Shown here piece after piece: positions 9,486-32,621 of a stretch of 64,000 nt of DNA. Both the position numbers and the translations under genes were made by a program. The stretch is from assembly GCF_965240435.1 (NCBI RefSeq), contig NZ_CBDEKO010000003.1; one strand, written 5' to 3'. The notes beneath the pieces were generated by a model that was not told where the DNA came from, ran no database searches, and was given only the letters and a program-made list of their open reading frames with translations. The stretch comes from Moorena producens. GTDB taxonomy: Bacteria; Cyanobacteriota; Cyanobacteriia; Cyanobacteriales; Coleofasciculaceae. Every line of letters starts with the position of its first letter. Within the stretch, counting starts at the first letter, position 1.

Positions 9486-9488
9486 CTA

Positions 9489-14039: not shown

Positions 14040-14511
14040 ACCAATTCTGGCCGATTACGGCTACAGATCAATTTCATCTGGCCATCTCCCGATCTGGCGA
14101 TCTCCCGATTTCCCCATCTGCATCTGTAATCCTACTTTGAAAAATTGCTATCAATAGTCAGAGAAACGGTCGAGATGGGTTGAGTAGGCAAGGTCGCGTT
14201 CGCTAGCCAACGCCCTTCGGGCTAATCCCATAAGTAATCTTACGGTCTTGATCGAAGATGACAAGTTTTTGGTAAGCCTCACACACCCCTCGATAAACCA
14301 GGGTTCTAAGGCGCTTAGTAAATTTCCTCAGTGAGCCGATAGCCTGGGAGTGTAATCATTATTGGTTACTATGGATGATTTAATGACATGGACTGCAACT
14401 AGTCACAGTTTTGACACTCCCCGCTCTTGCCTAGACCGGGTTTTTTTTCCTTGGACCATTGTTTATGAACTAGCTAAACTTATAACTAGCTACACTTATA
14501 ACTAGCTACAC

Positions 14512-14553
14512 TTATAAAGTTCCCCAGCAATCCTGTCCAAATAACAGTTTCAG
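14512..14553 (-). promoter_or_regulatory. Copy 1 of a recurring promoter module (minus-strand sense CTGAAACTGTTATTTGGACAGGATTGCTGGGGAACTTTATAAG)
   Basis: -35-like TTGGAC, a 17-nt spacer, then -10-like TATAAG. The same module recurs at 23960, 27043 and 32537. Confidence 0.45.
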
Positions 14554-14563
14554 GTTGATCATC

Positions 14564-16054
14564 TCAATGTACCTCCTCAGCCATCGGCTGTGGCTGCTGA
14601 ATCGGTAAGGAAACTGTAAAGGTAGTTTCACCAGGTACGGACTCCACCTCCATGTGTCCGTGATGTTTCTCTACAATTTTCCTAACAATATCTAATCCCA
14701 AACCACTGCCTTCTCCAGCGGCTTTCGTGGTAAAGAACGGCTGAAAGATTTTGGGCTGAATTTCAGGAGGAATCCCTTTGCCAGTGTCAGTAATGCTGAC
14801 CTTGATTTGGTCATCTTGCTGCCTCACATTAATGGTTAAAGTCCCCTTGTTCTCCATAGCTTGGAGAGCATTGTGAATCAGATTCGTCCAGACTTGATTG
14901 AGTTCATCAGGATAGCACCGGATAACTGGCAAAGAATCATCATAGTTTCTGTAGACGTCTACGCCATGTTTGAGTTGGTTATGATAAAGAGTCAAGACCG
15001 TGTCAATGCCGTCAGTAATCTGTGCATCTATCTTTTCCCCACTAGAGTCATAACGAGCATAAGTTTTCAAGGCAAACACCACTTTTGTGGCTCGTTCCAC
15101 GGCAGTGGTAATGTTGCGAGTACTCGTATAGAGGTTAGCTAACTGATAGGCAGTGGTTAAAATCATTTCGTTGTCTGGGTCTTTCAGGAGAGGCAAAAAC
15201 TCTTCAAAGTCCTCATAAACACCAATTCCCGCCAATAAATTGGCTAGCTTGACTGCTTTATCAATAGCGTAGGATTCCAGTTGGCTTTTCAACCTTCGTT
15301 TGAGTTGACGTTGCTCTCGGGTAGATAGAGGGGTAGTCTGTCGGCTGGAGTATTGGAGTAAGGCCAACACATCGGACTGACGTTCTGGCGAGAGTCCTTG
15401 AAAAAATGAGGGTAATTGGTGGAGGTGGTCGTTGAAGAAGTTAGACAGATTGCCCACACAGGAGCGAATTGCTCCCAGGGGAGTATTGATTTCGTGAGCG
15501 ATTCCTGCAACCAGTTGTCCAAGAGCAGCGAGTTTTTCTTGGGCGATTATCTGGCTTTGGGCAGCTTCGAGCTGTTCTAGGGTGTTTTGCCACCTCGCTT
15601 CTGCTGACCTTCGCTGTTCAATTTCCTCTTTAAGAAGGGCATTTTGCTCCTTGAGGGCCTTTGCCTGACATTGCAGTTGCAAATGGGTTCTAACTCTGGC
15701 TAATACTTCCTCTGACTGAATCGGTTTGGTCAGATAGTCCACTGCTCCGAGAGAAAAACCCTTGACCTTGTTCACGGTCTCGCTCAGGGCTGTCATAAAA
15801 ATCACAGGAATTTCACGGGTTAACGGATTTTCCTTCAGCCGATGGCACGTTTCAAATCCATCAATTCCTGGCATCATCACATCTAACACAATCAGATCTG
15901 GCGGTTTATAGTCAACCTGTTCAATGGCGCTTTCGCCATCAGTGGCGACTGCAACTTTGAAACCAGCACTGATCAATGTTGTGGATAGTACTTCTAAATT
16001 GGTGGCGATATCATCTACAATTAATATTAGTTGTTGATCCTGGCCATTGATCAT
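14564..16054 (-). CDS. Hybrid sensor histidine kinase (N-terminal REC, coiled coil, HisKA, HATPase_c)
   Basis: REC (LIVDDIATN...LDVMMPGIDGFE), H-box IAHEINTPLGAI, G-boxes (DTGKGIP, GSGLGLD). Confidence 0.85.
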   Translation of the reverse strand: MINGQDQQLILIVDDIATNLEVLSTTLISAGFKVAVATDGESAIEQVDYKPPDLIVLDVMMPGIDGFETCHRLKENPLTREIPVIFMTALSETVNKVKGFSLGAVDYLTKPIQSEEVLARVRTHLQLQCQAKALKEQNALLKEEIEQRRSAEARWQNTLEQLEAAQSQIIAQEKLAALGQLVAGIAHEINTPLGAIRSCVGNLSNFFNDHLHQLPSFFQGLSPERQSDVLALLQYSSRQTTPLSTREQRQLKRRLKSQLESYAIDKAVKLANLLAGIGVYEDFEEFLPLLKDPDNEMILTTAYQLANLYTSTRNITTAVERATKVVFALKTYARYDSSGEKIDAQITDGIDTVLTLYHNQLKHGVDVYRNYDDSLPVIRCYPDELNQVWTNLIHNALQAMENKGTLTINVRQQDDQIKVSITDTGKGIPPEIQPKIFQPFFTTKAAGEGSGLGLDIVRKIVEKHHGHMEVESVPGETTFTVSLPIQQPQPMAEEVH

Positions 16055-16363
16055 TGTTACACCTTTTTATAGAGTGGTCGAAGCAAGTAACCAATTAATA
16101 AATCGTTGCTAAACCATCCTGATAACTCCTAATAACCCTAACCATAAATCTATCAGCATTACTTCCTAATAGTTAAACCGTAAAACTAGGATTTTATTAA
16201 TGTTAATCCCATTCCCTAAAACTTTGCTCTCATTATCCATGACTGTTTGCTTAGCCGAAAAGTAGGCTATTGCCTGATCCCTGGCAAGGGTAGCATGGGC
16301 TTAGGGCGTTAACTGACGGCACCTCAAGTAGTGTGGGCGTAGGCGGATAGGCTTACCTCTTAA

Positions 16364-19300
16364 CTAATTACGTTCCAGGTATTGTTTGATGAAATCTTGG
16401 ATTTTTTTAACCTGAAAGCCTTGAGCGAATTGCTGGATATGTTGGACAAAAATCGCAAATTTATCATCGGATTTATCCAGAGTATCCACTTGTTCTAGAA
16501 TTTCGCTGATTAAGCCTGTTCTGGCCAAATCATAGAGCTGAGCAAGTTTTTCAGCTGGGGGAGGGATAATCTCTGTAGTTTGACATGAGATGTTTTCAGC
16601 CATCATCTTTTCTCGTTCTTCTTTTCCTTCATACACCCATTCCAGTCTCAGATGCATCCGTAATATCTCGAATAGTTTTTCTGAATCTACTGGCTTGGGC
16701 AGAAACTCGTCCGCCCCAGACTCAATACTCTTGTGTTGGTGAGTATCAAATACGCTGGCTGAGCAAGCAATCACCACTACTGACTGTAATTGGGGAGATT
16801 CTCGCAGCTGTCGGATCAATTCCCAACCATTCATCCCTGGCATGAGCAAGTCCGTAATAATTACCTCAGGCTGACACTGAGCTTTCTCCAAACCCTCTTG
16901 ACCGTTGGTGGCCTCCACCAGTTCAAACCCAAGGGGGGCAAGCAGATTAACCAAAACCATGCGATTTTCCCATTTATCATCCACCACCAGGATTTTCCGC
17001 CCCTGGCCTTTGAAGCCAATGATCCCTGTTTGAGAAGCCATGGGGGCATGTAAGCTTTCTGTGGCTTCTGGCAACTCCAAATCAAACCAAAACACACTGC
17101 CAATTTCCGGCTGGCTCCTGACTTCTAAGGTAGAGTTCATCATACACAGGAGTTTCTGAGTAATTGCTAATCCCAATCCTGTCCCTTCTGCTTTGCGAAA
17201 GGGATTTCCTACTTGCTCAAAGGGTAAAAAAATCTTTTGTAATTGCTCTGGGGTTATACCAATCCCAGTATCTTCCACTTGAAACCGGATTTTTGTCCTT
17301 TTTTCTTTGTTAAGCTCCCTTGTGAAGGAGGGTGATGGGGAGATATCCTTTTGGGTAGATTCAAGGACACTCACTTTCAAGGTTACTTCCCCAGAGTCAG
17401 TAAACTTGATGGCATTACTTAGGAGATTCATCAGTACTTGTCGTAGGCGTTTCTCATCCCCATAGATGCCATTGGGAAGTTGAGAAAGGGGTTGGTAAGT
17501 AAATACAATGTCCTTCTGATTAGCGCGGATACTGCAGATGTCAACCAGGTTTTCCAGAAAGGAGGAAAAATGAAAATTTCTAGGAACGAGTTCCATTTTC
17601 CTGGCTTCAATTTTGGATAGATCTAGAATGTCGTTAATCAGGGTTAACAAGTGTGAACCACACTGATGAATGATGTGGACGCCTTTGAGTTCCTCAGGAG
17701 TCATGGTTTTGGACTTTTTGAGGATTTGGGTGTAGCCGAGGATACCATTAAGGGGAGTTCTTAGTTCGTGGCTCATGTTAGCCAGGAATTCGCTTTTGGC
17801 ACGATTGGCAACTTCCGCAGCCTCTTTAGCATGTTGCAGTGCGGCTTCCGCTTGGTTGCGAGCAGTGACATCAACCATAACCGCTAGAGACCGAACCACC
17901 TGACCTAACTCATCTTGTTCAGCAATAGCGGAAAGAAGCACGTCAATGATTTCTCCATTCTTGCAAATCACATGATAGGGAACATCCAAGCACATTTCTG
18001 TCTCAAAACATTTAGGCAGAAACACCCCTTGGGTGTACTGGCGTGATTCTGTTAAAAAATCAGTTGATTGTCTTCCAATAACTTCATTACGATCGTAGCC
18101 TAACTTCTTTTGCCAGTAGTTACTGACACTGAGCAATTTACCATTGCTATCAATCGAATGCAGCATAACTGGTGTATTTTGATAGAGCGTGCGAAAGCGT
18201 TCTCTGCTCAGCCGCAGCTCCTCCTCGGCCTGTTTGCGATCGCTAATATCTTTATGGGTTCCTGCCATTCGTTTCGGGTTGCCCTTGTGATCATGAGCCA
18301 CGACTTTACCGTAAATGGCAATCCATTTCCATTGACCAGATTTGGTTCGTACTCTATGGTCACAGGCAAAGAGAACCGAACTATTTTTTAGACAAGCATT
18401 CAGCAACGACTTTACCAAGGCTTTATCCTCTGGATGTATCAGCTTTTCCCAACTGCTGAGGTATCCTGGTAGTTCATCCACATCATAGCCCAGCATTTCT
18501 AACCACCGGGGACTGTAATAAACCTCTCCAGTCATGATGTTCCAGTCCCAGAGTCCATCACCGGATCCTTCTAAAGCTAGCTGCAAGCGTTCCTGACTCA
18601 GTCCCAGTTCCTCTTCTGCGTGCTGATGCTCTACCTTAGCCCGTGCTAGTAAACCAGAACCAATACCAATTAGCACCACTAAACTACCATAAAGCAGCCC
18701 TAGCGGCTTCCAGGAATCACGGGAGCGTTCATTTATCACCTTAGGGGAAATGTAGGTGACAATTTTCCAGGTATCGGAGTTAGCATCGATCGTAGTGGGA
18801 TCAGAAAAACGCTTTTGTACAGGAGTTTTACCTGTTTGCATCTCGTAGAAAGGATGAACAGTGGTAAAGGTAAACTTACCGTTAGTAGTTTCAAATTGCC
18901 CCTGATCAGCCTTAGAAATCCGTTGCCATTCTTTTGGAAACCCCTTGGCAAAGGTACGGTCCTTGCGGTTAGGATACATGAATCCCCATTCATCCTCTGG
19001 CTTGGTTCCCTTCAGCCAAAATCCCTCACCATTCAACAGCATCATTTCCCCTAATGACGTATTATTTTCGGCTTCCAAACTATTGATGAAATGTTTAGGA
19101 AAATAGTTAATCATGACGATGCCCCGTTTCTGACCATAACTGTCAAACACAGGGCTACCAACGCGAATCACTGGCTTCAGGGGGTGTTCAATTTTTCCAT
19201 TTTCGACATTCAGGTCTAGGGGAGAGACAAACATTTCTCCCTTTGGCAAAGCTAAGGTTTTTTGAAACCAGTAACGATTTGCCTTGACTTGCAGTTGTTC

Positions 19301-19744
19301 CTCAGGCACAATAACCGGCTGACCTTGGTTAAAGTTGACTCTAACAATTTCTTTACCAGTTGTATCCAGAAAGCGAATTTGGTCATAAAGCCCTTTCTCT
19401 CGAACCAGGATCAGATATTCTTGAGTAAGGGCCATGCGCCACCTTTCAGTTTCTTCGGTAGCATCACTGGTGCTATCTAACATTGCCCGTAACTCATTTT
19501 GATTGGCTAGGAATCTCAAGTCTGATTCAATGACATGGAAATCACTAGCTGCTCCTTGAGCTGCCATCTCAACATTACGAATTTCATTAAGGTTGACTTC
19601 TGTTGTGTCAACCTTAACCTCGGTGCGATGCATGAGCACTAGAAAACTTCCTATCCCTATCGTTAAAGGTATAAAAATAGCTAAAAAGTAGTTTAATTCG
19701 GCTATAGGGCTAATTTTTTTGATAGTTTTCATTGCTCCGATCAA
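16364..19744 (-). CDS. Sensor hybrid histidine kinase paralog A (TM, periplasmic Cache-like domain, TM, 2x PAS, HisKA, HATPase_c, REC, conserved C-terminal tail)
   Basis: 1126 aa. H-box [20 protein letters not shown]-boxes, REC ([12 protein letters not shown]...TDLLMPGMNGWE). The tail is ...LYDLARTGLISEILEQVDTLDKSDDKFAIFVQHIQQFAQGFQVKKIQDFIKQY. Confidence 0.9.
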   Translation of the reverse strand: MIGAMKTIKKISPIAELNYFLAIFIPLTIGIGSFLVLMHRTEVKVDTTEVNLNEIRNVEMAAQGAASDFHVIESDLRFLANQNELRAMLDSTSDATEETERWRMALTQEYLILVREKGLYDQIRFLDTTGKEIVRVNFNQGQPVIVPEEQLQVKANRYWFQKTLALPKGEMFVSPLDLNVENGKIEHPLKPVIRVGSPVFDSYGQKRGIVMINYFPKHFINSLEAENNTSLGEMMLLNGEGFWLKGTKPEDEWGFMYPNRKDRTFAKGFPKEWQRISKADQGQFETTNGKFTFTTVHPFYEMQTGKTPVQKRFSDPTTIDANSDTWKIVTYISPKVINERSRDSWKPLGLLYGSLVVLIGIGSGLLARAKVEHQHAEEELGLSQERLQLALEGSGDGLWDWNIMTGEVYYSPRWLEMLGYDVDELPGYLSSWEKLIHPEDKALVKSLLNACLKNSSVLFACDHRVRTKSGQWKWIAIYGKVVAHDHKGNPKRMAGTHKDISDRKQAEEELRLSRERFRTLYQNTPVMLHSIDSNGKLLSVSNYWQKKLGYDRNEVIGRQSTDFLTESRQYTQGVFLPKCFETEMCLDVPYHVICKNGEIIDVLLSAIAEQDELGQVVRSLAVMVDVTARNQAEAALQHAKEAAEVANRAKSEFLANMSHELRTPLNGILGYTQILKKSKTMTPEELKGVHIIHQCGSHLLTLINDILDLSKIEARKMELVPRNFHFSSFLENLVDICSIRANQKDIVFTYQPLSQLPNGIYGDEKRLRQVLMNLLSNAIKFTDSGEVTLKVSVLESTQKDISPSPSFTRELNKEKRTKIRFQVEDTGIGITPEQLQKIFLPFEQVGNPFRKAEGTGLGLAITQKLLCMMNSTLEVRSQPEIGSVFWFDLELPEATESLHAPMASQTGIIGFKGQGRKILVVDDKWENRMVLVNLLAPLGFELVEATNGQEGLEKAQCQPEVIITDLLMPGMNGWELIRQLRESPQLQSVVVIACSASVFDTHQHKSIESGADEFLPKPVDSEKLFEILRMHLRLEWVYEGKEEREKMMAENISCQTTEIIPPPAEKLAQLYDLARTGLISEILEQVDTLDKSDDKFAIFVQHIQQFAQGFQVKKIQDFIKQYLERN

Positions 19745-19916
19745 CTAGTTTAGTTTTTGCTAGTTTTTAAAAAGTATTCTGTTCACTGTTACCCTTTAAT
19801 TGTTCCCTTTAATTACAAAAAAACTGTAGTCTTATTTTTTTTGTTAAAAAAATAGTCACTACTTCTGCTGCCGCAACTATATATATTGTGTATAATTTAG
19901 TTATGACTCAATCCTA

Positions 19917-19982
19917 TAGCAAAGGGAACAGGAAGCAGGGAGTAGGGACCATGGACCATGGACTAGGAACTAGGGAACAAAA
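19917..19982. repeat. Heptamer repeat block (GGGAACA/GGGAGTA/GGACCAT) forming an inverted partner to the array at 20108-20182
   Basis: Direct reading. Confidence 0.8.
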
Positions 19983-20107
19983 ATTATCAAAATTATTACA
20001 CAGATTGCTATACACAATATAGAGTTTTATGCCTGGTTTTATGGTTTTTTAATTAACAAATTAATTTATAGTTTTTTTTAGCCTAATGAGTTACACAGGA
20101 TTTTTTC

Positions 20108-20182
20108 CCTCTTCCCTACTCCCTACTCCCTACTCCCTACTCCCTACTCCCTACTCCCTACTCCCTACTCCCTGCTCCCTTT
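20108..20182. repeat. STRR-like heptamer tandem array CTCCCTA x10
   Basis: Direct reading. Confidence 0.9.
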
Positions 20183-20192
20183 GCTATAATAA

Positions 20193-22760
20193 TTATTGCT
20201 CCCGATATTGCTGAATAAACTGTCGTATTTTCTTGAGTTTAAAGTCTTCGGCTAATTGACGGAGATGTTGACTGAATGGGATTAACTTATCATCCGTTTT
20301 TTCCAGGATTTCCACTTGTTTTAAAATGTCGCTAATTAAGCCAGTCTTCGCCAAATCGTACAGGTGGTCTAGTGCTTCTTGTGAGGGCGGCACCATCGAC
20401 TTTTTAGTTTTGAGGGGGGATGGTGGCTGGGTCGTGACGTTTTTATCTTTATCTTCTTCTTCTTCTTCATAAACCCATTCTAGTTTCAGATGTACCCGTA
20501 ACTTCTCTAATAGCTTTTTTGACTCTACGGGCTTGGGCAAAAAATCATCTGCTCCCGCCTCACTACTTTGGTTCTGGTGATCATCAAACACACTGGCTGA
20601 ACAAGCGATCACTGGCACTGATGAGAATTGGGAGGATTCTCGCAACCTTTGAATCATCTCAAAACCATCCATCTGTGGCATCAATAAGTCAGTAATAATC
20701 AGATCCGGTTGGAAGTCTGTGGCTTTCTCTAAACCCTCTTTACCATTGCTCGCTTCTTTTAGTTCAAAGCCAAGGGGAGCTAACAGATTCACTAGTACCC
20801 AGCAATTTTCTGGTTTATCATCCACCACCAGAATTTTGCGCCCTTTGCCTGACAAACCAATGATTGTCTTGTCAGGAGCGATCGCATCAGTTACCCCTGT
20901 CGCTTCTGGCAACTCCAAATCAAACCAAAATACACTGCCCACACCCAGCTGGCTTTGCACTTCCAAAGTAGAGCCCATCATCTCAAGCAGTTTCTGAGTA
21001 ATGGCTAATCCCAATCCGGTGCCTTCGGCTCGAGTTAAGGCATTCCCCACCTGCTCGAAGGGCAACACTATGCGTTCGATGTGTTCCGGACTCATACCAA
21101 TACCGGTGTCTTCAATTTCAAACCGAATTGTTCTGATCAGTCCATGGTTGTTTTGTTTTTTGTCTTTCTCCTTTGTTAAGGGCTTTGACTCGATGACATT
21201 TACCTTCAAGGTCACAATTCCCGTGTCAGTAAACTTAATGGCATTACCCAGTAAGTTAATTAGTATTTGTCGCAGCCGTTTTTCATCGCCATGGATGTGA
21301 TTGGGAAGTTGATTCTGGGGTTGGTAACTAAAGAAAAGGTCTTTCTGATCAGCCCGGATGCGACAGATGTCAACTAGATTTTCTAGAAAGGAGGGAAAAT
21401 GAAAATTCCTTGGGTACAGTTCCATTTTCTTGGCCTCGATTTTAGAAATGTCTAAAATATCGTTAATCAGGGTGAGTAGGTGGTTGCCACATTGGTGGAT
21501 AACACGGATGCCCTTGAGTTCCTCAGGGGTCATGATTTTAGAGCGTTGGAGGATTTGGGTATAGCCGAGGATGCCATTGAGGGGAGTGCGCAGTTCATGA
21601 CTCATATTGGCCAGGAACTCACTTTTAGCACGGTTGGCAATTTCAGCGGTTTCTTTAGCTGCTTGTAATTCTTGGCTGAGGAGCTGTTGACGTTGGACTT
21701 CTGCTTCTTTGGATGCTAAAAGATGCTTTACTTGTTTAATCAGATGATTCAAAGAAGTACCTAAGACTCCTATTTCATCTTGGGATATGATCGGGGCTTG
21801 TAGAGTAAAATCATCATCTTTAGTGACGCGCTGGGCTACCTCTGTTACTTGTTTAATGTTACGGATAATCAACAACGTGACCCTGTTGGCAACTAAGCTG
21901 GTAATTGCGGACCCCAGCAAGCACAAAGCACTGATACTTAACCACAACTGTCCCTGCACCTGCTCGAGAGGTGCGGCGGAGTAAAGTAAAACCAGTTTGC
22001 CCCCCTTGCCATTGATCCCAGTGATCTCTACAGTTTTGGCAATGTAGTTTTTCTCGGCAATAGTGACCTGCACTGGTAGGGATTGGATTGGCGGTGGCTG
22101 CCAAGGAGTGTTTTTAGCATCGGTTAAGGTAGAGGCAGTAACCTCAGAATCGTAGAAGGTAACCAGGTGATGGTGCCTATGGGGGCGTAATTGTTCGAGC
22201 CATTCATCGCTAATGGTAATGCCAACGATTATTCCCCCTAAGATTTCCTGGGCAGACTTCACCGAGGTTAGACCGACTAGAAGCGATGCTGTATTGTCTT
22301 CAGCTGGCAGGAAATCGAACAAATCCATGCCAATGCTTGCCGCTTGGTTGAGTGTCTCGTCAATTAGCTCAACTTGGTTAAGGTCTGCCTGCCGCAGTTC
22401 CAGCAATACAGACCCGTTCTTGTCTACGAGTTTAAGCAGATCGAGCTGATAAGATAACTGTATCGGCAGTAAATACTGAAATAGCTTTTCCCGGTTCCCT
22501 GTCGCAACCAATGTGGAAACTTTCTGTTTGTCAGCTATCCACCTTGCTTTCAGAAATAGAGTTTCTTTTTCCTGTTCAAAGGCATGCAATTGTACGGATG
22601 AGAAGTTCTCGATCTTATTTTTCAGTTGCAGTTCTATACGCTTAGTGAAAAAATAGCCCAAACTAAAGGTTCCTACTATCCACATGCCCAGGAACACAGA
22701 GAGCATCGGCCATAGTATTTTTGCTCTGAGGGAAAGTTTCGAGTACATCTGTCGGAACAT
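20193..22760 (-). CDS. Sensor hybrid histidine kinase paralog B (TM, periplasmic domain, TM, HAMP, HisKA, HATPase_c, REC, conserved C-terminal tail)
   Basis: The track ORF runs 20193..22955, but the likely start is [11 protein letters not shown] at 22760, 7 nt after the stop of the upstream PstS-like gene. The transmitter and receiver are ~90% identical to paralog C. Confidence 0.9.
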
Positions 22761-22767
22761 GTCACTA

Positions 22768-23628
22768 CTACTCCTGTTCCTGGCTAGATGGTATAAACCC
22801 TGATTCGAGCAGATGGTTGCCTCCTTCTTTGCTAAAGGCGAAGTCAATAAAGGTTTCGGAGATATCTGAGGGGGTCTGGCGATAGACGATGCCAAGACGA
22901 CGCACCATTGTATACTTACCTGACTTAATGTTTTCGGGGGTGGGTTCCACGCCATCGAGGCTGAGGCGGTTCACAGGTAGCTGATTAGCGATCGCATAGG
23001 CCAGGGAAAAAGCACCGATGCTGTAGGGTGTACTCTGAACTGCTGCAATTAAATCAGCTTCGTGGCGCAAAATCACTGCTTCTGGAGCATTCTTGAGGTC
23101 TGACCCAAGGTAATATTTCCGCAATAGTTTCTTGGCTGACTCATCCTCATGTCGATCCAGCACGATAATTGTTGCGTCTGGTCCCCCTACCTTTTGCCAA
23201 TTGGTCACCTTGCCGCTGTAGATTGCCTTGAGTTGTTCGGTTTGCAAGTTGGTCACTCCTGCGACACTAGGGTGAGTTGCTACTACTAAACCATCTTTAG
23301 CGATTTCCCGATATACTAAAGAGCCATCATCCTCCTCTGGTTTCAACGTTCTGGTAACAGTACCAAGATCAACCAATTTGTCTTTAGTGCCAGCGATCCC
23401 ACCAGGGGATTGACTTTTTGGCAAAAAGGTAATGACTGTGTTTTCAGTCTTGGCTTCATAGGCAGCAGCTAATACCTTCATGGCTGGATAGGGACTCCCT
23501 GCCCCAGTAATCTTGATTTCCTGCTGGGCTTGTTGGAGATTGGTGGCTTGCTTGCTGTTGGGGGTGCAGCTTACCAACATGGCTAGGCTCGTCCCTAGAG
23601 CTAGAGTAAACCAGGTATTTAACTTCAT
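22768..23628 (-). CDS. Periplasmic substrate-binding protein, PstS/PBP-like-2 family
   Basis: Lipoprotein-like signal peptide (LAMLVSC) and an ITGAGSPYP...GGIAG...IGAFSLAY pattern typical of phosphate-binding-protein-like PBPs. It lies immediately upstream of kinase B and is probably co-transcribed with it. Confidence 0.65.
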
Positions 23629-23959
23629 TAGACATCTCCAATAAACTATTAATTTTACTCTTGATAATCACGAGTTTTTGGTGAGCCTCAGACATGCCTT
23701 GAGCAACTTAGGTTCTAGTGCCAGAGTCAATGCCATAAAGGTGCAACACGACCCTTTTTGAAGGAGACAAGGGAGCCTGTTAAAGGTTTGAATGAATTGA
23801 TTGAAACCGTCTTTGACAATCACGATTGATTGGTTAAGTTCATTTTTAATCTAGTCATAGAATATCCTCCTCAAGAGAGATGCAGCCATTGTCTTTTATT
23901 ACTATTATATTTAAACTATTGCGAATACTTTCCAGTTATGGTATTCTACAATAGCCATA

Positions 23960-24001
23960 TTATAGAGTTCCCAGCTAATCTTACCAAATAACAGTTTCAG
24001 C
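23960..24001 (-). promoter_or_regulatory. Copy 2 of the recurring promoter module (CTGAAACTGTTATTTGGTAAGATTAGCTGGGAACTCTATAAT)
   Basis: -35 TTGGTA, a 17-nt spacer, -10 TATAAT. It is followed by a conserved leader and a 12-codon relic ORF. Confidence 0.5.
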
Positions 24002-24092
24002 TTAATCTCTAGTTTATTTCATTACTTTTTCCATGGGATATCATTGGTTATACTCAGATATTGCACAAAGTTTAAAATTTATCTGTAAAGGC

Positions 24093-24192
24093 AGGGAACA
24101 GCGGATCTGGGAACAGCGGATCTGGGAACAGCGGATCTGGGAACAGCGGATCTGGGAACAGCGGATCTGGGAACAGCGGATCTGGGAACAGA
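24093..24192. repeat. Tandem 15-mer GGGAACAGCGGATCT x~6.7
   Basis: Direct reading. One inverted copy (CCAGATCCGCTGTTCCC) lies at 24474-24492. Confidence 0.9.
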
Positions 24193-24461: not shown

Positions 24462-24565
24462 CCTGCTCCCTGTTCCCAGATCCGCTGTTCCCTGTTCCCT
24501 ACTCCCTACTCCCTACTCCCTACTCCCTACTCCCTGCTCCCTACTCCCTACTCCCTACTCCCGTT
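24462..24565. repeat. STRR-like heptamer arrays (CTCCCTA/CTCCCTG), the 3' flank of kinase C
   Basis: Direct reading. A smaller block lies at 24379-24405. Confidence 0.9.
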
Positions 24566-24575
24566 GCTATAATAA

Positions 24576-26903
24576 TTATTGCTCCCGATATTGCTGAATA
24601 AACTTTCGGATTTTCTTGAGGTTAAACTCTTCGGCTAATTGACGGAGATGTTGGCTAAATGGGATTAATTGATCATCAGATTTTTCCAGGATTTCCACTT
24701 GTTTTAAAATCTCGCTAATTAAGCCAGTCTTCGCCAGATCGTACAGCTGGTCTAGTGCTTCTTTTGAGGGGGGCACTATCAAGTTTTCAGTTTTGAGGGA
24801 GGATGGTGCCTTGGCCGTGACGTTTTTATCTTTATTTTCTTCTCCTTCATAAACCCATTCTAGTTTCAGATGTCCCCGTAACTTCTCTAATAGCTTTTTT
24901 GACTCTACTGGCTTGGGCAGAAAATCATCCGCTCCCGCGTCAATACTGTGATGCTGGTGATCATCAAACACACTGGCTGAACAAGCGATCAATGGCACTG
25001 ATGAGAATTGGGAGGATTCTCGCAACCGTCGGATCATCTCAAAACCATCCATCTGTGGCATCAACAAGTCAGTAATAATCAGATCCGGTTGGAACTGTTT
25101 AGCTTTGTCCAAACCTTCTTTACCATTGGTTGCTTCTTCGAGTTCAAAGCCAAGGGGAGCGAGCAGATTCACCAATACCCAGCGATTTTCTTGTTTATCA
25201 TCCACCACCAGAATTTTGCGCTCAATGCCAAGGAAACCAATAATTGTCTGATCAGGAACAATCACATCAGTTACTTCTGTAGCTTCTGGCAAGTCCAAAT
25301 CAAACCAAAATACACTGCCCACACCCAGCTGGCTTTGCACTTCCAACGTAGACCCCATCATCTCAAGTAGTTTCTGAGTAATGGCTAATCCCAATCCGGT
25401 GCCTTCGGCTCGACTTAAGGCATTCCCCACCTGCTCGAAAGGCAACACTATGCGTTCGATGTGTTCCGGACTCATACCAATACCGGTGTCTTCAATTTCA
25501 AACCGAATTGTTCTGATCACTCCATGGTTGTTTAGCTTTTTGTCTTCCTTTGTTGTTAAGGGCTTTGACTCCAGTACATTTACCTTGAAGGTCACTGCTC
25601 CAGTGTCAGTAAATTTAATCCCATTACCGAGTAAGTTGATTAGTATTTGTCGCAGGCGTTTTTCATCGGCATGGATGTGATTGGGCAGTTGAGCAAAGGG
25701 TTGGTAACTAAAGGAAATTTCCTTCTGATCAGCGCGGATACAGCAGATGTCAACTAGGTTTTCTAAAAAGGAGGGAAAATGAAAATTCCTTGGGTACAGT
25801 TCCATTTTCTTGGCCTCGATTTTAGAAATGTCTAAAATATCGTTAATCAAGGTCAGTAGGTGGTTGCCACATTGGTGGATGACACGGATGCCCTTGAGTT
25901 CCTCAGGACTTATGATTTTAGAGCGTTGGAGGATTTGGGTATAACCGAGGATGCCATTGAGGGGAGTGCGCAGTTCATGACTCATATTGGCCAGGAACTC
26001 ACTTTTGGCACGGTTGGCAATTTCAGCGCTTTCTTTAGCCCCTTGTAATTCTTCCCTCAGGAGCTGTTGACGTTGAATTTCTACATCTTGAGCTGCTAAC
26101 AGTGTTTTACTGGTATAGAAGGCTAATAAGGCTGCGGTTGAAATTGATGCAATCATGCTAATCAAAATGATTCGAGTCCGAAGCCTTTCAGAAGCCTCTA
26201 GGACAGCTTTGGCATGTGGTCTTTCCTCCTCAACCTCCTCTATTATTTCCTCAAGATCATAGACGAAACTCCTGAGGTTTAGCCCTAAAGGACTCTTGCT
26301 TAAATCTAAAAACTTTTTTTGGGCTTTCTCGATGTGTTCTGGGGTCAAATTCGACGGATCAATTTGCCGCAATAGTGCCTCTATACGTTGGGTGTATACT
26401 TGTATTAGGCTGTCATAATTTTTGATAAGGTTATTTAAAAGTTCAAGTTCCTCTGCTAGCTCATCCACCTCTGGATTTTTGTAAGAGTCTTTTAAGGCCA
26501 ACCAGTTTTGCTGGGCTAATCTGGAATGCTTTTTAAAACGAGAATACTCTTCATGAAAAATCTCTGGTTGCTGGAACAAAACAGCAAAGTATTGATGGTG
26601 TATTTGTACTTCCAGCAGGTAACGTTGCAAGTCCATGAGAAGCTCGCTTTCTTCTAAGGTATCTTCTCTTAAGTTCTGAGCATAGTTTTGGTAGTTATTG
26701 CCAATAAGGAGTCCAACTGTTGTTCCCAGGACAGCAATCCCAAGGGCAATACCATACCCATAGGCAATCTTTTGAGTGATACTAAGGCGATTTAGCTGCT
26801 TTCTGAACCAAACAACAGGAGCTGTTAAGGGATGGGATGAGTTGGTTGAAACCATATTTGACAATGAAGATGTGGTGCTTGGGTCTGTTTTTAATTTAGT
26901 CAT
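24576..26903 (-). CDS. Sensor hybrid histidine kinase paralog C (TM, helical sensor region, TM, HisKA, HATPase_c, REC, conserved C-terminal tail)
   Basis: The track ORF starts at 26933. The start MTKLKTDP at 26903 is preferred because a GAGGAGGA RBS lies 6 nt upstream of it. Confidence 0.9.
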   Translation of the reverse strand: MTKLKTDPSTTSSLSNMVSTNSSHPLTAPVVWFRKQLNRLSITQKIAYGYGIALGIAVLGTTVGLLIGNNYQNYAQNLREDTLEESELLMDLQRYLLEVQIHHQYFAVLFQQPEIFHEEYSRFKKHSRLAQQNWLALKDSYKNPEVDELAEELELLNNLIKNYDSLIQVYTQRIEALLRQIDPSNLTPEHIEKAQKKFLDLSKSPLGLNLRSFVYDLEEIIEEVEEERPHAKAVLEASERLRTRIILISMIASISTAALLAFYTSKTLLAAQDVEIQRQQLLREELQGAKESAEIANRAKSEFLANMSHELRTPLNGILGYTQILQRSKIISPEELKGIRVIHQCGNHLLTLINDILDISKIEAKKMELYPRNFHFPSFLENLVDICCIRADQKEISFSYQPFAQLPNHIHADEKRLRQILINLLGNGIKFTDTGAVTFKVNVLESKPLTTKEDKKLNNHGVIRTIRFEIEDTGIGMSPEHIERIVLPFEQVGNALSRAEGTGLGLAITQKLLEMMGSTLEVQSQLGVGSVFWFDLDLPEATEVTDVIVPDQTIIGFLGIERKILVVDDKQENRWVLVNLLAPLGFELEEATNGKEGLDKAKQFQPDLIITDLLMPQMDGFEMIRRLRESSQFSSVPLIACSASVFDDHQHHSIDAGADDFLPKPVESKKLLEKLRGHLKLEWVYEGEENKDKNVTAKAPSSLKTENLIVPPSKEALDQLYDLAKTGLISEILKQVEILEKSDDQLIPFSQHLRQLAEEFNLKKIRKFIQQYREQ

Positions 26904-27042
26904 ATATATCCTCCTCAAGGGAGATGTAGCCATTATTTTTTAGTACTATTAAAAACTATTGCGAATTATTTAATAATTGTGGGGTTGTACATACCGGGGT
27001 TGTAGATACAATTGTAAATAAAGTGGTAAATACAATAGTTAT

Positions 27043-27085
27043 ATTATAGAATTCCCAACCAGTCTTACCCAAGTAACAGTTTCAG
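27043..27085 (-). promoter_or_regulatory. Copy 3 of the recurring promoter module
   Basis: Minus-strand sense CTGAAACTGTTACTTGGGTAAGACTGGTTGGGAATTCTATAAT. Confidence 0.5.
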
Positions 27086-27156
27086 TCTCCTATCAATTAC
27101 CCTTGCTTCTTTCGTTTGGTATTTATAGTGTTAGTCACCAGGTTGATCTAATTACT

Positions 27157-29382
27157 TTACAGGTATTGTTTGATGAATTCTCGAATTTTTTTGATTTGAA
27201 ATTTTTCGGATAATTGACGGATAGCTTGGGAAAATGGTATAAATATATCATCATTTTTTTCTAGCTCATCGACTTCCTCTAAAAGGTCATTGATTAAGCC
27301 TGACATAGCCAGATCGTAGAGGTAGACTAGTTTTTCTTTTGGAGGACTAACAATTTGTGTTGTTTGAAGTGATATGTTTTTATAATTATGATTTTTTTGT
27401 TCTTGACATTCAACAACTTTTTTATGATTTTTGTGAAAATTTATTTCATGGTATTCTGGATAAGTTTGTACGTCTAAATCTATAGTAAAAATACTCCCTT
27501 TGCCTGGTTTACTCTCGACATTAATGTCACCTCCCATCATCTTGACAAGTTTCTGGGTAATTGCTAAACCCAGTCCAGTACCTTCCACATAACCAGAGAT
27601 ATTTTCTAGCTTTTCAAAGGGCAAAAATAGTTGAGATAATTGCTCGCTATTCATCCCAATACCGGTGTCTTTTACTTCAAAGCGAATAGTGGTAAGATGT
27701 TGGAGTTTATTTGTTATTTCATCTTTAGCATTTTTCCTTGATTCAAGGACACTAACCTTAAAGGCTACTCCCCCTGTTTCAGTAAATTTAATGCCATTGT
27801 CGAGTAAGTTAATCAGCACTTGTCGCAAGCGTTTTTCGTCAACAGTAATTGCTCTAGGTAGTCGAGAAGTCGCTTGGTAACTATAGGAAATACCCTTTTG
27901 GTCTGCTTTCACCTGACAAATTGCCACGATGTCCTTCAAGAAGGTACCAAAATCAAGCGTTTGGGGGTGGAGTTCTAATTGATCAGCTTCAATTGTACAG
28001 AGGTCTAAAATCTCATTGATCAGGCTGAGCAGATTAGAGCCGCACTGCTCGATAATATCAATACCTTTTTTGTCGTTAGCAGTTAGACTAGTTGATTTTT
28101 TCAGGATTTGAGCGTAACCCAAAATACCGTTGAGGGGAGTACGGACTTCGTGGCTGATGTTGGCAAGAAATATACTTTTAGCACGGTTAGCAGCTTCACT
28201 TTCCACTGCTGCCCGAACTGCTGCTTCTTTAGCTTTCTGGAGTTCCACTGTCCGTTGCTCAACTCGCTGTTCTAGCTGTCTTTCACTCTCCACCAGTGCT
28301 GCTACTGCTGAGATGCGATCGCTAATATAGATAGCTAGCAATATGGTCAGTAATAGTCCCCCCAAGGAAACAGTCCAGGGATACCAGGTTCTTCGACTCG
28401 CTATATATTCGGAATTGGGCTTAGACAGAATCAACCATTTCTGTCCTGAGACATCAAGAATTACAGTATGGTGTAACCCATTTCTGAGGGTAGCAAGGTT
28501 TTCGTCCTTCAAGTCCTTTGATGCTTTGGGTGTACTAGATGAATAGGTATAGAGCAATCGCTCGTCTGTTGGCGCAGATTCGTGAAACAGATAAACATCA
28601 ATCCCCCTCGGTTGTCGATACTTTAAAGCCCTGTCTACAATGTCTCCAATCAAAAACGCACTTGAGGCAAAACCTTCCAGATTTTGGCGACGGGATATAA
28701 CTGAATTAGTAGGTGTATTTTGTCGATAAATTGGCCATAAAATTAGGAATCCTAGTTGGTGCTGGGTGTTTTTATGCATTAATTTCATCGGTGCAGTTGC
28801 GATCGCTTTGCCACTATCCCGTGATAATTCCAAAGCTTCTAAACTTAGAGAATTCGAGGCTAGGTCAAATCCCAACATTGTCTCATTATCGTGGTATGGC
28901 TCAAGAAAATAGACCGGAAAATATTCTTCTCTGGGTTTAGCCTTAATCAGCTCTCCCTGAGGATTCTTTTCTGTAATTTTAAAGTTAGGAAAATCCTCTT
29001 GTTTGGCAGCTTGTTCGTAAGCGGATCGTTGCTCATGGGGTACCCAAGGAATCCACTGTAGGGCTTGAATATCTGAATGATTTGACAAGTAAGGCTTGAC
29101 AAACGTCCGAAATTCCTGACGAGTCACTTTTTCGGAGGCAGCATAGACCCCAACAATCGATTCCAGTTGGTGTAGATTTTTCTCAAGGCTTCTTTGGAGC
29201 AAGGAAACAATATCCTTGGCATCTTGTTCAAACTCTTTTTCGATGGTTTTGTTTTCCAAATTCCAAGTTCCCATGAACGTTAGTAGGGAAAACATAACCC
29301 CTGTAAAAATAGTTATTGCTAGGGGCAGAGAATGGACTGTTTTTTGGAGATTTATTAGAGTATTAAGTAGTTTGTTATTCAT
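27157..29382 (-). CDS. Sensor histidine kinase paralog D (TM, CHASE domain, TM, HisKA, HATPase_c, conserved C-terminal tail, no REC)
   Basis: The periplasmic region (EFRTFVKPYLSNHSDIQALQWIPWV...YFPVYFLEPY...LGFDLAS) is CHASE-like. It has an H-box and G-boxes, and the tail is ...LYDLAMSGLINDLLEEVDELEKNDDIFIPFSQAIRQLSEKFQIKKIREFIKQYL. Confidence 0.85.
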   Translation of the reverse strand: MNNKLLNTLINLQKTVHSLPLAITIFTGVMFSLLTFMGTWNLENKTIEKEFEQDAKDIVSLLQRSLEKNLHQLESIVGVYAASEKVTRQEFRTFVKPYLSNHSDIQALQWIPWVPHEQRSAYEQAAKQEDFPNFKITEKNPQGELIKAKPREEYFPVYFLEPYHDNETMLGFDLASNSLSLEALELSRDSGKAIATAPMKLMHKNTQHQLGFLILWPIYRQNTPTNSVISRRQNLEGFASSAFLIGDIVDRALKYRQPRGIDVYLFHESAPTDERLLYTYSSSTPKASKDLKDENLATLRNGLHHTVILDVSGQKWLILSKPNSEYIASRRTWYPWTVSLGGLLLTILLAIYISDRISAVAALVESERQLEQRVEQRTVELQKAKEAAVRAAVESEAANRAKSIFLANISHEVRTPLNGILGYAQILKKSTSLTANDKKGIDIIEQCGSNLLSLINEILDLCTIEADQLELHPQTLDFGTFLKDIVAICQVKADQKGISYSYQATSRLPRAITVDEKRLRQVLINLLDNGIKFTETGGVAFKVSVLESRKNAKDEITNKLQHLTTIRFEVKDTGIGMNSEQLSQLFLPFEKLENISGYVEGTGLGLAITQKLVKMMGGDINVESKPGKGSIFTIDLDVQTYPEYHEINFHKNHKKVVECQEQKNHNYKNISLQTTQIVSPPKEKLVYLYDLAMSGLINDLLEEVDELEKNDDIFIPFSQAIRQLSEKFQIKKIREFIKQYL

Positions 29383-29504
29383 AATATTACCTTTGCTTAG
29401 TCACTTATGACATCAATCTTAATGTTTGTAATTAGTCATTATCTGAAATCTAAAAAATAGGCTACAGATAACTTGTTATGAAATCAACAAGGCATAGTCT
29501 GAAT

Positions 29505-32336
29505 TCACTGAATATAGTCTTTAATAAAATTTCTAATTTTTTTCAACTGAAAATTTTGAGCTAATTCACGGATATGTTGGACAAAATCACTAGTGTTTGG
29601 ATCAGATTTTTCTAGGTTATCGATTTGTTTTAAAAGGTCATTGATTAAGCCTGCCCTAGCCAGATCGTAAAGTTGGGAAAGTTTCTCGACTGGAGGAGTC
29701 ACAATCTCTAGGGTTTGAGATGAGATGTTTTTCTTCTTCCTACTTCCTCCTTCCTGCCTTGCTTGATAAATCCATTCCAGTTTCAGATGCACTTGTAACA
29801 TCTCTAGTAGCTTTTCTGCCTCTACTGGTTTAGGCAAAAAATCATCCGCTCCAGCCTCACTACTTTTTTCCTTGTCGGTGTCAAATACACTAGCCGAAGA
29901 CGCAATCACTACTTTTGAGTGCAATTGGGGGGATTGTCGCAACTGTCGGATCATCTCAAAGCCATCCATCTGTGGCATCAACAAGTCAGTGATAATCAGG
30001 TCTGGTGGAAATGCTGTGGCTTCCTCTAAACCCTCTTGACCACTGCTAGCCTCCACTAGTTCAAATCCCAGGGGAGCCAGCAGATTTACAATCACCCAGC
30101 GATTTTCTTGTTTATCATCCACCACCAGAATTGTGGGTGGCTGACCTTTGAAGCCAATAATCCCTCTTTGAGGAGTCATGGGTTTGGATGCAGCTGTGGT
30201 TTCTTTTAACTGCAAATCGAACCAAAACACAGTGCCAATGCCCAACTGGCTGCTTACTTCTAACTTAGACCCCATCATCTGAACCAGTTTCTGAGTAATG
30301 GCTAATCCCAATCCGGTCCCTTGTGCTTTATTTAAGGGATTCCCCACTTGCTCGAAAGGCAAAAATATCCGTTCGATTTGTTCCGGACTCATGCCAATAC
30401 CCGTGTCTTCAATTTTAAATCGAATTGTTGTTAACAGTTCTTGGCTATTGGTCATGTGTCCATTCTCCTTCTCCCTTGATTTAAGGACACTTACTGTAAA
30501 CTTAACGTCTCCAGTGTCAGTAAACTTAATCCCATTACCCAGTAAGTTAATCAGCACTTGTCGCAGGCGTTTTTCATCAGCGTGTATGCCGGTGGGAAGT
30601 TCAGAAAGGGGTTGGTAAGTAAACAAAATGTCCTTGTTTTGAACTCTGATTTCGCAGATGTCAATCAGGTTCTGAAGAAAAGATGGAAAATGAAAATCTG
30701 TCCGGTAGAGTTCCATTTTACCTGCTTCAATTTTGGACAGGTCTAAAATGTCATTAATCAGGGTTAGCAGATGATTACCACATTGATGGATAATGTCAAT
30801 CCCCTTGAGAGACTGATCAGACAAGCTTTTGGAGCGTTTCAGGATTTGGGTGTAACCGAGGATGCCATTGAGAGGGGTGCGCAGTTCATGGCTGATGTTG
30901 GCGAGAAATTCGCTTTTGGCACGGTTGGCCACTGCGCTTTGCGCCGCAGCGCGAACGGCTGCTTCTTTTGCCTGTTTGAGGTCTTCCTCAGCTTGTTTGC
31001 GATCGCTAATATCGGTTCTGATCGCCAAATACTGGTAAGGTTTGTCTCTATCATCCAAGAACGGTACAATGGTGGTATCGACCCAGTAATAGGTGCCATC
31101 TTTCGCTTGATTCTTAATTTCTCCCTGCCAAACTTGACCACTAGCAATAATTGACCAGAGGTTTCGGAAGAATTCCTTGGGGTGGTAATTGGAATTGATC
31201 AATAGATGGCTTTGTCCAATCAGTTCTTCCCTAGAATATTTAGAGATATGACAGAACCGATCATTGACATAGGTAATTACCCCTTTTTGGTCAGTAATAG
31301 CTAGGATTGAACCTTGATCTAAAGCATACTTGAAATCTGATAATTCTTTGACTGACCTTTGCAGTTTTTCCTCTGTTTCTTGTTGTTTAGCAATCTCTAA
31401 GACCAGACGTTTATTCACATGTTCTAGTGTACAATAGGTACGCTGATAATCCAGTATTAATCCTACTAGGGGGATCAGGTAGGCAATAATTTTGAGGAAA
31501 TGGGCGATATGGAAATGACTGTCGAAGAGTGCTTGTGAACCAAAAGCCATGTGGAGTTGGGCGACTGTATCGGGAATAGTACTCACAATTAAGGAGTAAG
31601 AGAACAGACTGGGATACCGTTGGTGAAAGCTTGGGTAAATAAAAATGCCAGCAGCAATAAACAGAAGCAATGGCAGGATGTCCCATGGTCGGGGGATAAT
31701 GAAGTTGGGAAATGTTGTTTCCGGCAGAAGCTCCCTGGTTGCACAGATGTGAATTATGCCATAGGCAATCAACCCAAACCCCAAGCTGACAATAATGACA
31801 AAACCCAAGCTGCTGGTTTGGTTTTTTTCTACCCAGCTTCTCCTTGAGAAAAGGCTAGTTCCTAGAATTAGGATTAGTGCATTGAAAAGCCGACAGAGTG
31901 TCCAGGTAAATGGAATTAAATTCCGATTATCGGCGACAGCATCAATTAAGTGCTCAGCAGCCACAGTATTAAAGGTATCCATCACACCAGCAAAAAAAAG
32001 TGATAGGCCGATGATAGGAACGATTGGGTCTTTGGTGATACTATAGTTTGTGAAGGCTAAGCAAACCGTAAAAACAGCCGTACAGACAGCACTCCACTCC
32101 AGGAGTGTGTGTACAAAACTTCCGGACAGGACGGAGTGCATGGCATCATGAAGTTCATGGGGTTCCCATTCAGAGGCTGCCGAGAGGTCAAACAGTTCCT
32201 GATGGGTACTAAAATCAACCCCTAATTGATGCAGAAGATAGGGTAAAATGCAGATAAAAACCACTGTCCAAACCAATGGTTTGGGGAATCTAGTTTGGCC
32301 GACAAGCCTGGCTTTTATCATAGTTTTCATTCCCAA
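29505..32336 (-). CDS. Sensor hybrid histidine kinase paralog E (multi-TM MASE1-like membrane domain, PAS, HisKA, HATPase_c, REC, conserved C-terminal tail)
   Basis: ~300-aa polytopic N-terminus, PAS (VNDRFCHISKYSREELIGQ), H-box [22 protein letters not shown] (ILVVDDKQENRW...[12 protein letters not shown]) and the tail. Confidence 0.9.
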   Translation of the reverse strand: MGMKTMIKARLVGQTRFPKPLVWTVVFICILPYLLHQLGVDFSTHQELFDLSAASEWEPHELHDAMHSVLSGSFVHTLLEWSAVCTAVFTVCLAFTNYSITKDPIVPIIGLSLFFAGVMDTFNTVAAEHLIDAVADNRNLIPFTWTLCRLFNALILILGTSLFSRRSWVEKNQTSSLGFVIIVSLGFGLIAYGIIHICATRELLPETTFPNFIIPRPWDILPLLLFIAAGIFIYPSFHQRYPSLFSYSLIVSTIPDTVAQLHMAFGSQALFDSHFHIAHFLKIIAYLIPLVGLILDYQRTYCTLEHVNKRLVLEIAKQQETEEKLQRSVKELSDFKYALDQGSILAITDQKGVITYVNDRFCHISKYSREELIGQSHLLINSNYHPKEFFRNLWSIIASGQVWQGEIKNQAKDGTYYWVDTTIVPFLDDRDKPYQYLAIRTDISDRKQAEEDLKQAKEAAVRAAAQSAVANRAKSEFLANISHELRTPLNGILGYTQILKRSKSLSDQSLKGIDIIHQCGNHLLTLINDILDLSKIEAGKMELYRTDFHFPSFLQNLIDICEIRVQNKDILFTYQPLSELPTGIHADEKRLRQVLINLLGNGIKFTDTGDVKFTVSVLKSREKENGHMTNSQELLTTIRFKIEDTGIGMSPEQIERIFLPFEQVGNPLNKAQGTGLGLAITQKLVQMMGSKLEVSSQLGIGTVFWFDLQLKETTAASKPMTPQRGIIGFKGQPPTILVVDDKQENRWVIVNLLAPLGFELVEASSGQEGLEEATAFPPDLIITDLLMPQMDGFEMIRQLRQSPQLHSKVVIASSASVFDTDKEKSSEAGADDFLPKPVEAEKLLEMLQVHLKLEWIYQARQEGGSRKKKNISSQTLEIVTPPVEKLSQLYDLARAGLINDLLKQIDNLEKSDPNTSDFVQHIRELAQNFQLKKIRNFIKDYIQ

Positions 32337-32536
32337 TATGGCTTTCGGTTTGATGAGTGATCAAGATGAGGAAGGTCTTTAGGTAAGACTTGGCTAAATC
32401 ATCCATGGCACCAATAGGCAATACCAAGTAGGGTTCTAGTGCTAGATTCGATTGACTCAGTGATGGGATAGCCTGGAGCTGTAATCATTTAGGGTTATAC
32501 TCATTGAACAATATGGACTTCTGTGAGGCCAGTTAC

Positions 32537-32575
32537 ATATAGAGTTCCCGGCTAATCCGACCCAAATAACGGCGT
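32537..32575 (-). promoter_or_regulatory. Copy 4 of the recurring promoter module (partial)
   Basis: Minus-strand sense TTATTTGGGTCGGATTAGCCGGGAACTCTATATG. It lies upstream of kinase E with the conserved leader between them. Confidence 0.4.
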
Positions 32576-32621
32576 TGTATAGGGGTTTTAAATTGGGTGA
32601 GGTACAGATTCCTCGGTTTTA

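Follow-up and report, generated by a model that had tools for sequence, protein, structure and literature searches.

A repeated promoter-like segment in a two-component gene cluster of Moorena producens carries the decayed 5' end of a serine/threonine-kinase gene

Introduction

The HstK/Pkn40/Pkn41 (cbSTKIII) family of kinases is described in PMC2176072. Here, genes of this type are compared to a repeated segment in a 64,000-nucleotide stretch of Moorena producens DNA (NCBI RefSeq assembly GCF_965240435.1, contig NZ_CBDEKO010000003.1), hereafter the window; the other points of comparison are sigma-70-type promoters of cyanobacteria, cis-regulatory leader RNAs, and segmental duplication in tandem arrays of paralogous genes. 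Moorena is a filamentous marine cyanobacterium, and two-component genes are densely clustered on the minus strand of the window over ~20 kb, from 11.8 to 32.3 kb. Using a repeat-family search and alignment, we found a ~42-nt promoter-like box in four minus-strand copies (c1 to c4), each located upstream of one transcription unit; c1, c2 and c4 are also associated with a leader of ~120-150 nt. An earlier interpretation made from the letters of the window alone (the sequence-only reading) regarded this arrangement as a shared promoter followed by a leader that could be a structured cis-regulatory RNA. The element itself proved to be real. The leader, however, is the decayed beginning, i.e., the first ~36 codons, of a Ser/Thr-kinase/histidine-kinase gene that was copied along with its promoter.

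With respect to HstK/Alr2258 and Pkn40/Pkn41 (cbSTKIII), the leaders align to residues 1-36, spanning the start codon, the M-I/V-x-L/I-P-G-Y motif, the glycine-loop region and the V-I-I-K lysine. In contrast to HstK-type dual kinases, no kinase, AAA, GAF or histidine-kinase (HK) part follows. Only a broken ~36-codon piece is left; therefore, the stub is a gene relic and not a member of the HstK family.

Results

Coding origin and decay of the leaders

All three leaders translate, via stops and frameshifts, into the first ~36 residues of the HstK/cbSTKIII-type kinase family. The leader pieces were joined into a query peptide, with stops and frameshifts corrected, and compared to 72,556 plasmids using tblastn. 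The corrected peptide matches the first codons of large cyanobacterial plasmid genes (E-values of 1e-8 to 4e-8 for the best records), and 36 of the 38 records belong to the trifunctional serine/threonine-protein kinase/ATP-binding/sensor histidine kinase family, counting its AAA/PAS-annotated members. The matched genes are annotated as [quoted passage not shown], "ATP-binding sensor histidine kinase" or "AAA family ATPase". Nine regions carry an annotated kinase gene, and in eight of these the beginning of the match coincides with the annotated start or is no more than 4 codons away from it; in the exceptional plasmid locus (L027), the annotated start is 15 codons upstream of the match, and one further locus (L026) lacks an annotated coding sequence where the match is located. 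The Pkinase domain of the matched plasmid proteins begins at residue ~7-21.

An edit-free test gave the same answer. A 60-residue profile of ten real N-termini was compared to 4016 raw six-frame fragments of the window, and the top three fragments were 14365-14318 (E-value 0.001), 32488-32402 (0.013) and 14355-14206 (0.021), followed by a match with an E-value of about 1. When the same profile was applied to 11 Moorena loci, all ten matches with an E-value below 0.5 were leader copies, including the c2 orthologues, two of which (L003, L006) read SEADQKPVIIKG at profile positions 21-36. None of the matches to the 60-residue profile extends past position ~36, and with a 169-residue kinase profile no relic piece was found past that position either. 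Codons 1-36 of a kinase gene thus explain the conserved leader blocks that had been taken as a regulatory signature. Such blocks are indeed present in three copies, as the sequence-only reading had stated; however, the c2 leader (described as 23650-23745) lacks the first block (ATGATTACA..CCAGGCTATC) and is separated from its box by a relic of another kinase gene, kinase C. It should be noted that a Pfam scan of the relic peptides yielded no match, the peptides being too short. A phmmer comparison to PDB gave a weak match to the N-terminus of the ULK3 kinase (E-value 0.27), which is consistent with the kinase origin and was not used as evidence.

An exact-pattern scan, with one genome per species, detected orthologous copies in M. 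bouillonii PNG, M. producens 3L and three Moorena metagenome-assembled genomes (MAGs). All leader copies carry stops or frameshifts, and the orthologues are disrupted in different ways: a 187-nt repeat-containing insertion is present in the c1 orthologue of L015, indels of 2-5 nt are present in the c4 orthologues, a 2-nt deletion changes the stop in L017 and L020, and a 5-nt-scale deletion ruins the ATG context in L011. The identity between orthologous relics is 0.90-0.93, versus 0.83-0.94 at third codon positions of adjacent genes.

Properties of the box

Recovery of four boxes before four transcription units, and of three leaders, is far beyond chance. The 17-mer CTGAAACTGTTATTTGG, allowing up to 3 mismatches, has 3 matches in the window, versus 0.33 expected. 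An nhmmer model of the box recovered only four sites in the 64 kb (E-values of about 1e-14 to 1e-15; next match, 2.4) and a model of the leader recovered only its three sites in the window (next match, 0.3), it being understood that both models were built from the very copies they recover.

Similar to sigma-70-type (group 1 sigma, type 1) cyanobacterial promoters, the box copies contain a -10 hexamer (TATAAT, TATAAG or TATATG) and a TTGG.. hexamer 17-18 nt upstream of it; the difference is in the weak -35, which agrees with TTGACA at just 3-4 of 6 positions. The box fits a promoter of this type only partly. The -10 TATAAT attributed to the element holds for c2 and c3 (6/6) and nearly holds for c1 (5/6), and is not found in c4; neither c1 nor c4 has T at position 6. 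The description of the -35 as near-consensus was overstated, only c2 among the four boxes passing the sigma-70 consensus scan. The upstream CTGAAACTG, described as conserved, is missing from c4; where present, it is more likely, like the common spacer, to reflect common descent rather than function. Promoter-like sites are not enriched in the region (40, compared to 37 in shuffled sequences).

We infer that the box probably acts as a promoter of the downstream units, given its -10 TATAAT and weak -35. No other segment is present in all four copies, c3 with its different 5' untranslated region (UTR) included; in alignments of orthologues, homology begins at or just upstream of the box, beside hypervariable repeat DNA; and in c2 and c3 a perfect TATAAT is found at a sensible distance from the genes. 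These three features point to a working promoter and argue against the alternative that the box is a residual similarity left by duplication, without promoter activity, the operons being transcribed from other starts or by read-through, for example at c1, which is located just past the stop codon of an upstream gene. That alternative is supported by the conservation of the box among paralogous copies, which is no better than that of the dead relic, by the modest hexamers and the -10 of c4, and by the chance frequency of promoter-like sites; on balance, we consider it unlikely. The interspecies identity of the box, 0.91-1.00, is slightly above that of the neighboring sequence, and this difference, which is not significant, would fit a functional promoter.

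If the box is a working promoter, the four units may respond alike, and it is plausible that they are transcribed from related promoters and share promoter input or co-regulation. The unit starting at 14039 is of a kinase lineage different from that of paralogs A-E; the sequence-only reading had made this point for paralogs B to E, and gene and domain annotation agrees with it. Therefore, the repeat was not simply carried by the duplication of one kinase gene, and a shared promoter input appears plausible. The window genes scanned included no DNA-binding response regulator (open reading frames, ORFs, at 1-11000 and 58800-64000 were outside the scan), and none of the papers returned by a literature search dealt with the mapping of transcription start sites in Moorena. 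Readings of the box as an NtcA, HLR1 (RpaB) or Pho-box site were dropped by eye, the resemblance being at the half-site level only, with wrong spacing.

Relations among the copies

The copies differ in extent. In c1 and c4, the box, the 5' UTR and the relic are collinear; c1 additionally contains ~110 nt, part of which is a 16-nt tandem repeat derived from its -10 region. Copies c2 and c3 have in common the box, a different UTR, a Shine-Dalgarno sequence, a start codon and the first ~50 codons of kinase C, with 78% identity. In c3, a 134-nt UTR leads to the ATG at 26903, preceded by GAGGAGG, whereas in c2 the piece derived from kinase C is dead: a stop occurs after 12 codons, followed by the second half of the Ser/Thr-kinase stub. 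Two relics stacked upstream of operon B are a signature of recombination between members of the cluster.

The identity among paralogous copies is uniform, i.e., 0.74-0.89 for the box core, 0.69-0.78 for the UTR and 0.67-0.80 for the relic, suggesting that the whole segment behaves as one duplicated piece and that the box is not visibly better preserved than the dead coding sequence. The kinase paralogs are nearly saturated at four-fold degenerate sites (identity 0.30-0.53), with the exception of the B-C pair (0.81); in parts of the transmitter, the identity between kinases B and C is 93-100%. The module copies are thus more alike than the near-saturated kinase sites, suggesting that they are younger than the kinase paralogs or were homogenized by conversion. 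Either the module spread well after the divergence of the kinases, as we assume here, or part of it is held by selection. In the latter case, the promoter-plus-stub cassette would be kept as a portable unit of co-regulation, the box being the target of one regulator that links the four sensor operons to a common signal, and the stub having a post-transcriptional role (protein-binding platform or translational control) independent of a stable conserved fold. The excess similarity of the copies is the sole pointer to such a selected cassette, and the same excess can be attributed to recent copying or conversion, although it is a residual unexplained point; we regard selection for a portable unit as improbable.

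Tests for RNA structure and for a leader peptide

Cis-regulatory leader RNAs (riboswitches, attenuators, T-boxes) likewise occupy a long 5' leader that separates a promoter-like site from the first gene. The leaders of the window differ from these in lacking an Rfam match, a stable fold, covariation and cross-species integrity. Folding z-scores, compared to dinucleotide shuffles, are -0.23, +0.81 and +0.32, i.e., no better than shuffled; RNAalifold applied to 7 paralogous and orthologous leader copies produced 0 pairs and an energy of 0, so that no compensatory base changes were found among these copies; and an Rfam scan at gathering thresholds found nothing within 11000-36000, leaders included. 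The leader fails every defining test of a cis-regulatory RNA that was run.

These results bear directly on the proposal that box and leader form a dedicated regulatory module, in which the leader is a structured RNA of the riboswitch or attenuator type providing a common input to the operons. The proposal could draw on the three leader copies with conserved blocks and on the module copies being more alike than the synonymous sites of the associated kinase genes. However, the blocks are accounted for as kinase codons, the first third of the leader is absent in c2 and the whole leader in c3, and the orthologues accumulate indels and change at the rate of third codon positions. A structured RNA is already largely refuted and must be considered very improbable. 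Instead, the leader is a dead gene fragment that segmental duplication or recombination carried along as flanking sequence, and the sequence-only reading had itself named such an outcome as one that would speak against it.

An even smaller probability is assigned to the possibility that the relic encodes a functional short leader peptide (MIT.PGY..TE.I...) coupling its translation to downstream expression. Copies c1 and c4 retain the ATG and a similar 13-residue start, and the c1 orthologue in L015 retains a 14-codon frame. However, the ATG part is missing from c2, the frame is destroyed in L011 (MNSSRVFHH, then a stop), and the 2-nt deletion in L017 and L020 lengthens it to ~64 codons; with frame lengths of 14, 29 and ~64 codons, nothing is conserved except ancestry.

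Distribution of the module

Within the 8.26-Mb M. bouillonii PNG record, no site other than the same four fits the strict box pattern. Although diverged copies would escape this pattern, the result speaks against both a mobile element and a genome-wide regulon. A small mobile element (MITE-like, i.e., resembling a miniature inverted-repeat transposable element), or part of one, inserting before genes with an outward-facing promoter, would suit a module found upstream of unrelated genes in a repeat-rich region with two TnpB/IS605 OrfB genes in the window, but it is hardly credible, since no inverted repeats are present in or flanking any copy, all strict-pattern matches in that record are in this cluster, and the differing extents and common internal indels of the copies fit recombination rather than transposition.

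Other matches to the box pattern were rejected as chance or generic promoter-like sequences: those in Nostoc, Komarekiella, Hydrococcus, a Coleofasciculaceae MAG and a Cyanobacteriota MAG precede unrelated genes, and four more are outside cyanobacteria (Fusobacterium, Christensenella, Flavobacterium and an uncultured bacterium). An identical 32-nt match, GTTACTTGGGATAACTTTTTGGGAATTCTATA, is located upstream of an orthologous ~415-aa ORF in Nostoc sp. B(2019) (L009, 6196-6227) and Komarekiella (L013, 5132-5163). Unrelated to two-component genes, it is probably a conserved promoter of this ORF and not a relative of the Moorena box.

The 187-nt insertion in the c1 leader of Moorena sp. SS36440bin_2 (L015, ~7210-7415, equivalent to window ~14225-14260) contains three copies of GATTAGCCCGAAGGGC as well as GCGATCGC (HIP1-like) sites, and has the appearance of a small repeat element in the course of expansion, its source being a motif with one copy in the window (14207-14227). 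In M. producens 3L (L018, about 95-210), the c4 stub is fused directly, and out of frame, to the coding sequence of the receiver domain of kinase E, implying either a ~2.2-kb deletion of kinase E or an assembly artefact; taken as a deletion, it shows that the region is still rearranging. A ~250-nt repeat block located ~10-15 nt upstream of box c4 is present in the window and in M. bouillonii and is missing from four other Moorena genomes.

The gene cluster and its surroundings

The coordinates of the module copies and of the genes around them are listed in Table 1. Kinases A-E have in common a paralogous HisKA-HATPase(-REC) transmitter and a C-terminal tail, and their sensor parts are unrelated. 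No copy of the module was detected upstream of kinase A (19745-20192) or kinase D (29383-29504).

Table 1. Coordinates of the module copies, gene relics and two-component genes in the window (RR, response regulator; HK, histidine kinase)
Feature	Position	Strand	Remarks
Box c1	14512-14553	minus	CTGAAACTGTTATTTGGACAGGATTGCTGGGGAACTTTATAA; -10 TATAAG; 10 nt past the stop codon of RR-HK
Box c2	23959-24001	minus	TTGGTA, spacer 17 nt, TATAAT
Box c3	27044-27085	minus	-10 TATAAT; kinase relic absent
Box c4	32537-32578	minus	-10 TATATG; without CTGAAACTG
Leader c1	14239-14360		nhmmer E-value 1e-30
Leader c2	23646-23757		nhmmer E-value 5e-30
Leader c4	32348-32489		nhmmer E-value 7e-23
Kinase-gene relic c1	14206-14359	minus	MITLPGYRLTEEIY, stop, frameshift, then ..RLRTLVYRGVCEAYQKLVIFDQD..; profile positions 1-35
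Kinase-gene relic c2	23646-23749	minus	second half only; GTRT, stop, VAQGMSEAHQKLVIIK
Kinase-gene relic c4	32349-32488	minus	MITAPGYPITESIESSTRTLLGIAYWCHG, stop (profile positions 1-21); degenerate continuation after
16-nt tandem repeat (3.4 copies)	14463-14517	minus	reduplicates the c1 -10/start-site region; single copy in Moorena sp. SS36440bin_2
Kinase C relic in c2	23750-23958	minus	5' UTR, Shine-Dalgarno, ~50 codons; 78% identical to 26800-27043; start 23858
RR-PAS-HK (RR-PAS-HisKA-HATPase)	11785-13623	minus	second gene of the unit behind c1
Receiver-only response regulator	13620-14039	minus	first gene of the unit behind c1 (11785-14039)
RR-HK	14564-16054	minus	
Kinase A	16364-19744	minus	HK_sensor/dCache + PAS
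Transcription unit behind c2	20193-23628	minus	PstS-like substrate-binding protein, then HAMP hybrid kinase B
PstS-like binding protein	22768-23628	minus	
Kinase B	20193-22955 (longest ORF)	minus	HAMP hybrid kinase
Hybrid kinase C	24576-26933	minus	likely start 26903
CHASE kinase D	27157-29382	minus	no receiver; follows kinase E after a 122-nt gap
MASE3-PAS hybrid kinase E	29505-32336	minus	first gene of the unit behind c4 (27157-32336)
Tail of kinases A-E	16364-16600, 20193-20420, 24576-24800, 27157-27380, 29505-29730	minus	

The tail of kinases A-E, ~70 aa (..LYDLA.TGLI.DIL.QV..LEK.D....F.QH.RQLA..F..KKI..FI..Y), has no Pfam match and is present even in the receiver-less kinase D; possibly, this tail is a degenerate HPt-like module. 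The longest ORF of kinase B reaches 188 nt into the PstS-like gene (22758-22955, minus). More probably, kinase B starts with the ATG at 22760, located 7 nt past the stop of the PstS-like gene, and the two genes would then form a tight binding-protein-plus-kinase operon.

The spacer DNA of the cluster is full of 7-, 13-, 15- and 16-nt tandem repeats. Arrays of heptamers (TCCCTAC and GAACAGA types), 15-nt and 13-nt units are located between the kinase genes at 20113-20180, 24496-24562, 32621-32773, 24094-24191 and 32904-32947. The two IS605 OrfB/TnpB-like genes (33616-35022 and 46527-47873, minus) encode HTH_OrfB_IS605, OrfB_IS605 and Cas12f1-like TNB domains, and one of them is just upstream of the kinase array; between this gene and the array there is a stand-alone MEKHLA-domain protein (33077-33556, minus; 159 aa, Pfam E-value 4e-59). 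Two very large proteins (35163-39065 and 54271-58281, minus) have N-terminal TPS (two-partner secretion) domains, and the former additionally contains TPR repeats and a C-terminal CHAT protease-like domain. The only Rfam match of the window is a thiamine pyrophosphate (TPP) riboswitch at 5731-5827 on the plus strand (RF00059, 71.7 bits, E-value 4e-12), directly upstream of a 457-aa ORF (5834-7207).

Discussion

The explanation that we favor, with considerable confidence, is that the module is the 5' end of a former HstK/cbSTKIII-type gene, i.e., its promoter region, 5' UTR and ~36 codons, truncated and then copied within the cluster. According to this scenario, a Ser/Thr-kinase/HK gene of the cluster would have been truncated, leaving its promoter, UTR and ~36 codons before a downstream gene. 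The stub, together with the promoter, would then have been copied to other operon starts by local segmental duplication, ectopic recombination or gene conversion, in a cluster that is itself a mosaic, in which five paralogous transmitter modules (A-E) are combined with sensor modules that are unrelated. The box would still be a promoter, and the stub would merely be transcribed as a long unstructured 5' leader without a function of its own.

Several observations weigh against this explanation. No intact parent gene was found, and a metagenome scan for ATGATTACANNNCCAGGCTATC returned three unrelated chance matches and no such gene. The Moorena species are just 5-12% diverged, so that the comparison of orthologues has low power and a weak constraint is possible. 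The strict box pattern would miss diverged copies elsewhere in the genome. The -35 matches are poor and the -10 of c4 is weak, promoter activity being predicted from sequence. Finally, the module copies are 67-89% identical despite the nearly saturated synonymous sites of the associated kinase paralogs.

The main value of the analysis is a correction: a repeated conserved leader with the appearance of a riboswitch or an attenuator is a dead gene fragment. This is a warning for scans that nominate cis-regulatory RNAs by similarity of paralogous upstream regions alone; the repeat should be translated first. The locus is also a clear example of sensor-kinase evolution by cassette swapping, with one transmitter type combined with five different sensor modules. 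In addition, the presumed recruitment of a single promoter and 5' stub before non-paralogous operons could put several Moorena sensors under the same transcriptional control.

Among the known systems, the repeat most resembles the products of segmental duplication and gene conversion in tandem paralog arrays, where a promoter-proximal segment is common to neighboring transcription units. The likeness includes the uniform divergence of box, UTR and relic, the mosaic junctions, the conversion-like identity of kinases B and C, and a strain-specific deletion. The difference is that the segment fronts non-paralogous genes, i.e., a response-regulator operon, a PstS-like gene with its kinase, and a MASE3 kinase, so that one promoter type may have been recruited to several sensors. 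As a whole, the repeat is a commonplace outcome of recombination in a gene cluster that evolves fast. It represents a known kind of event, the duplication of a promoter and 5' end within a tandem paralog array, with gene remnants left behind.

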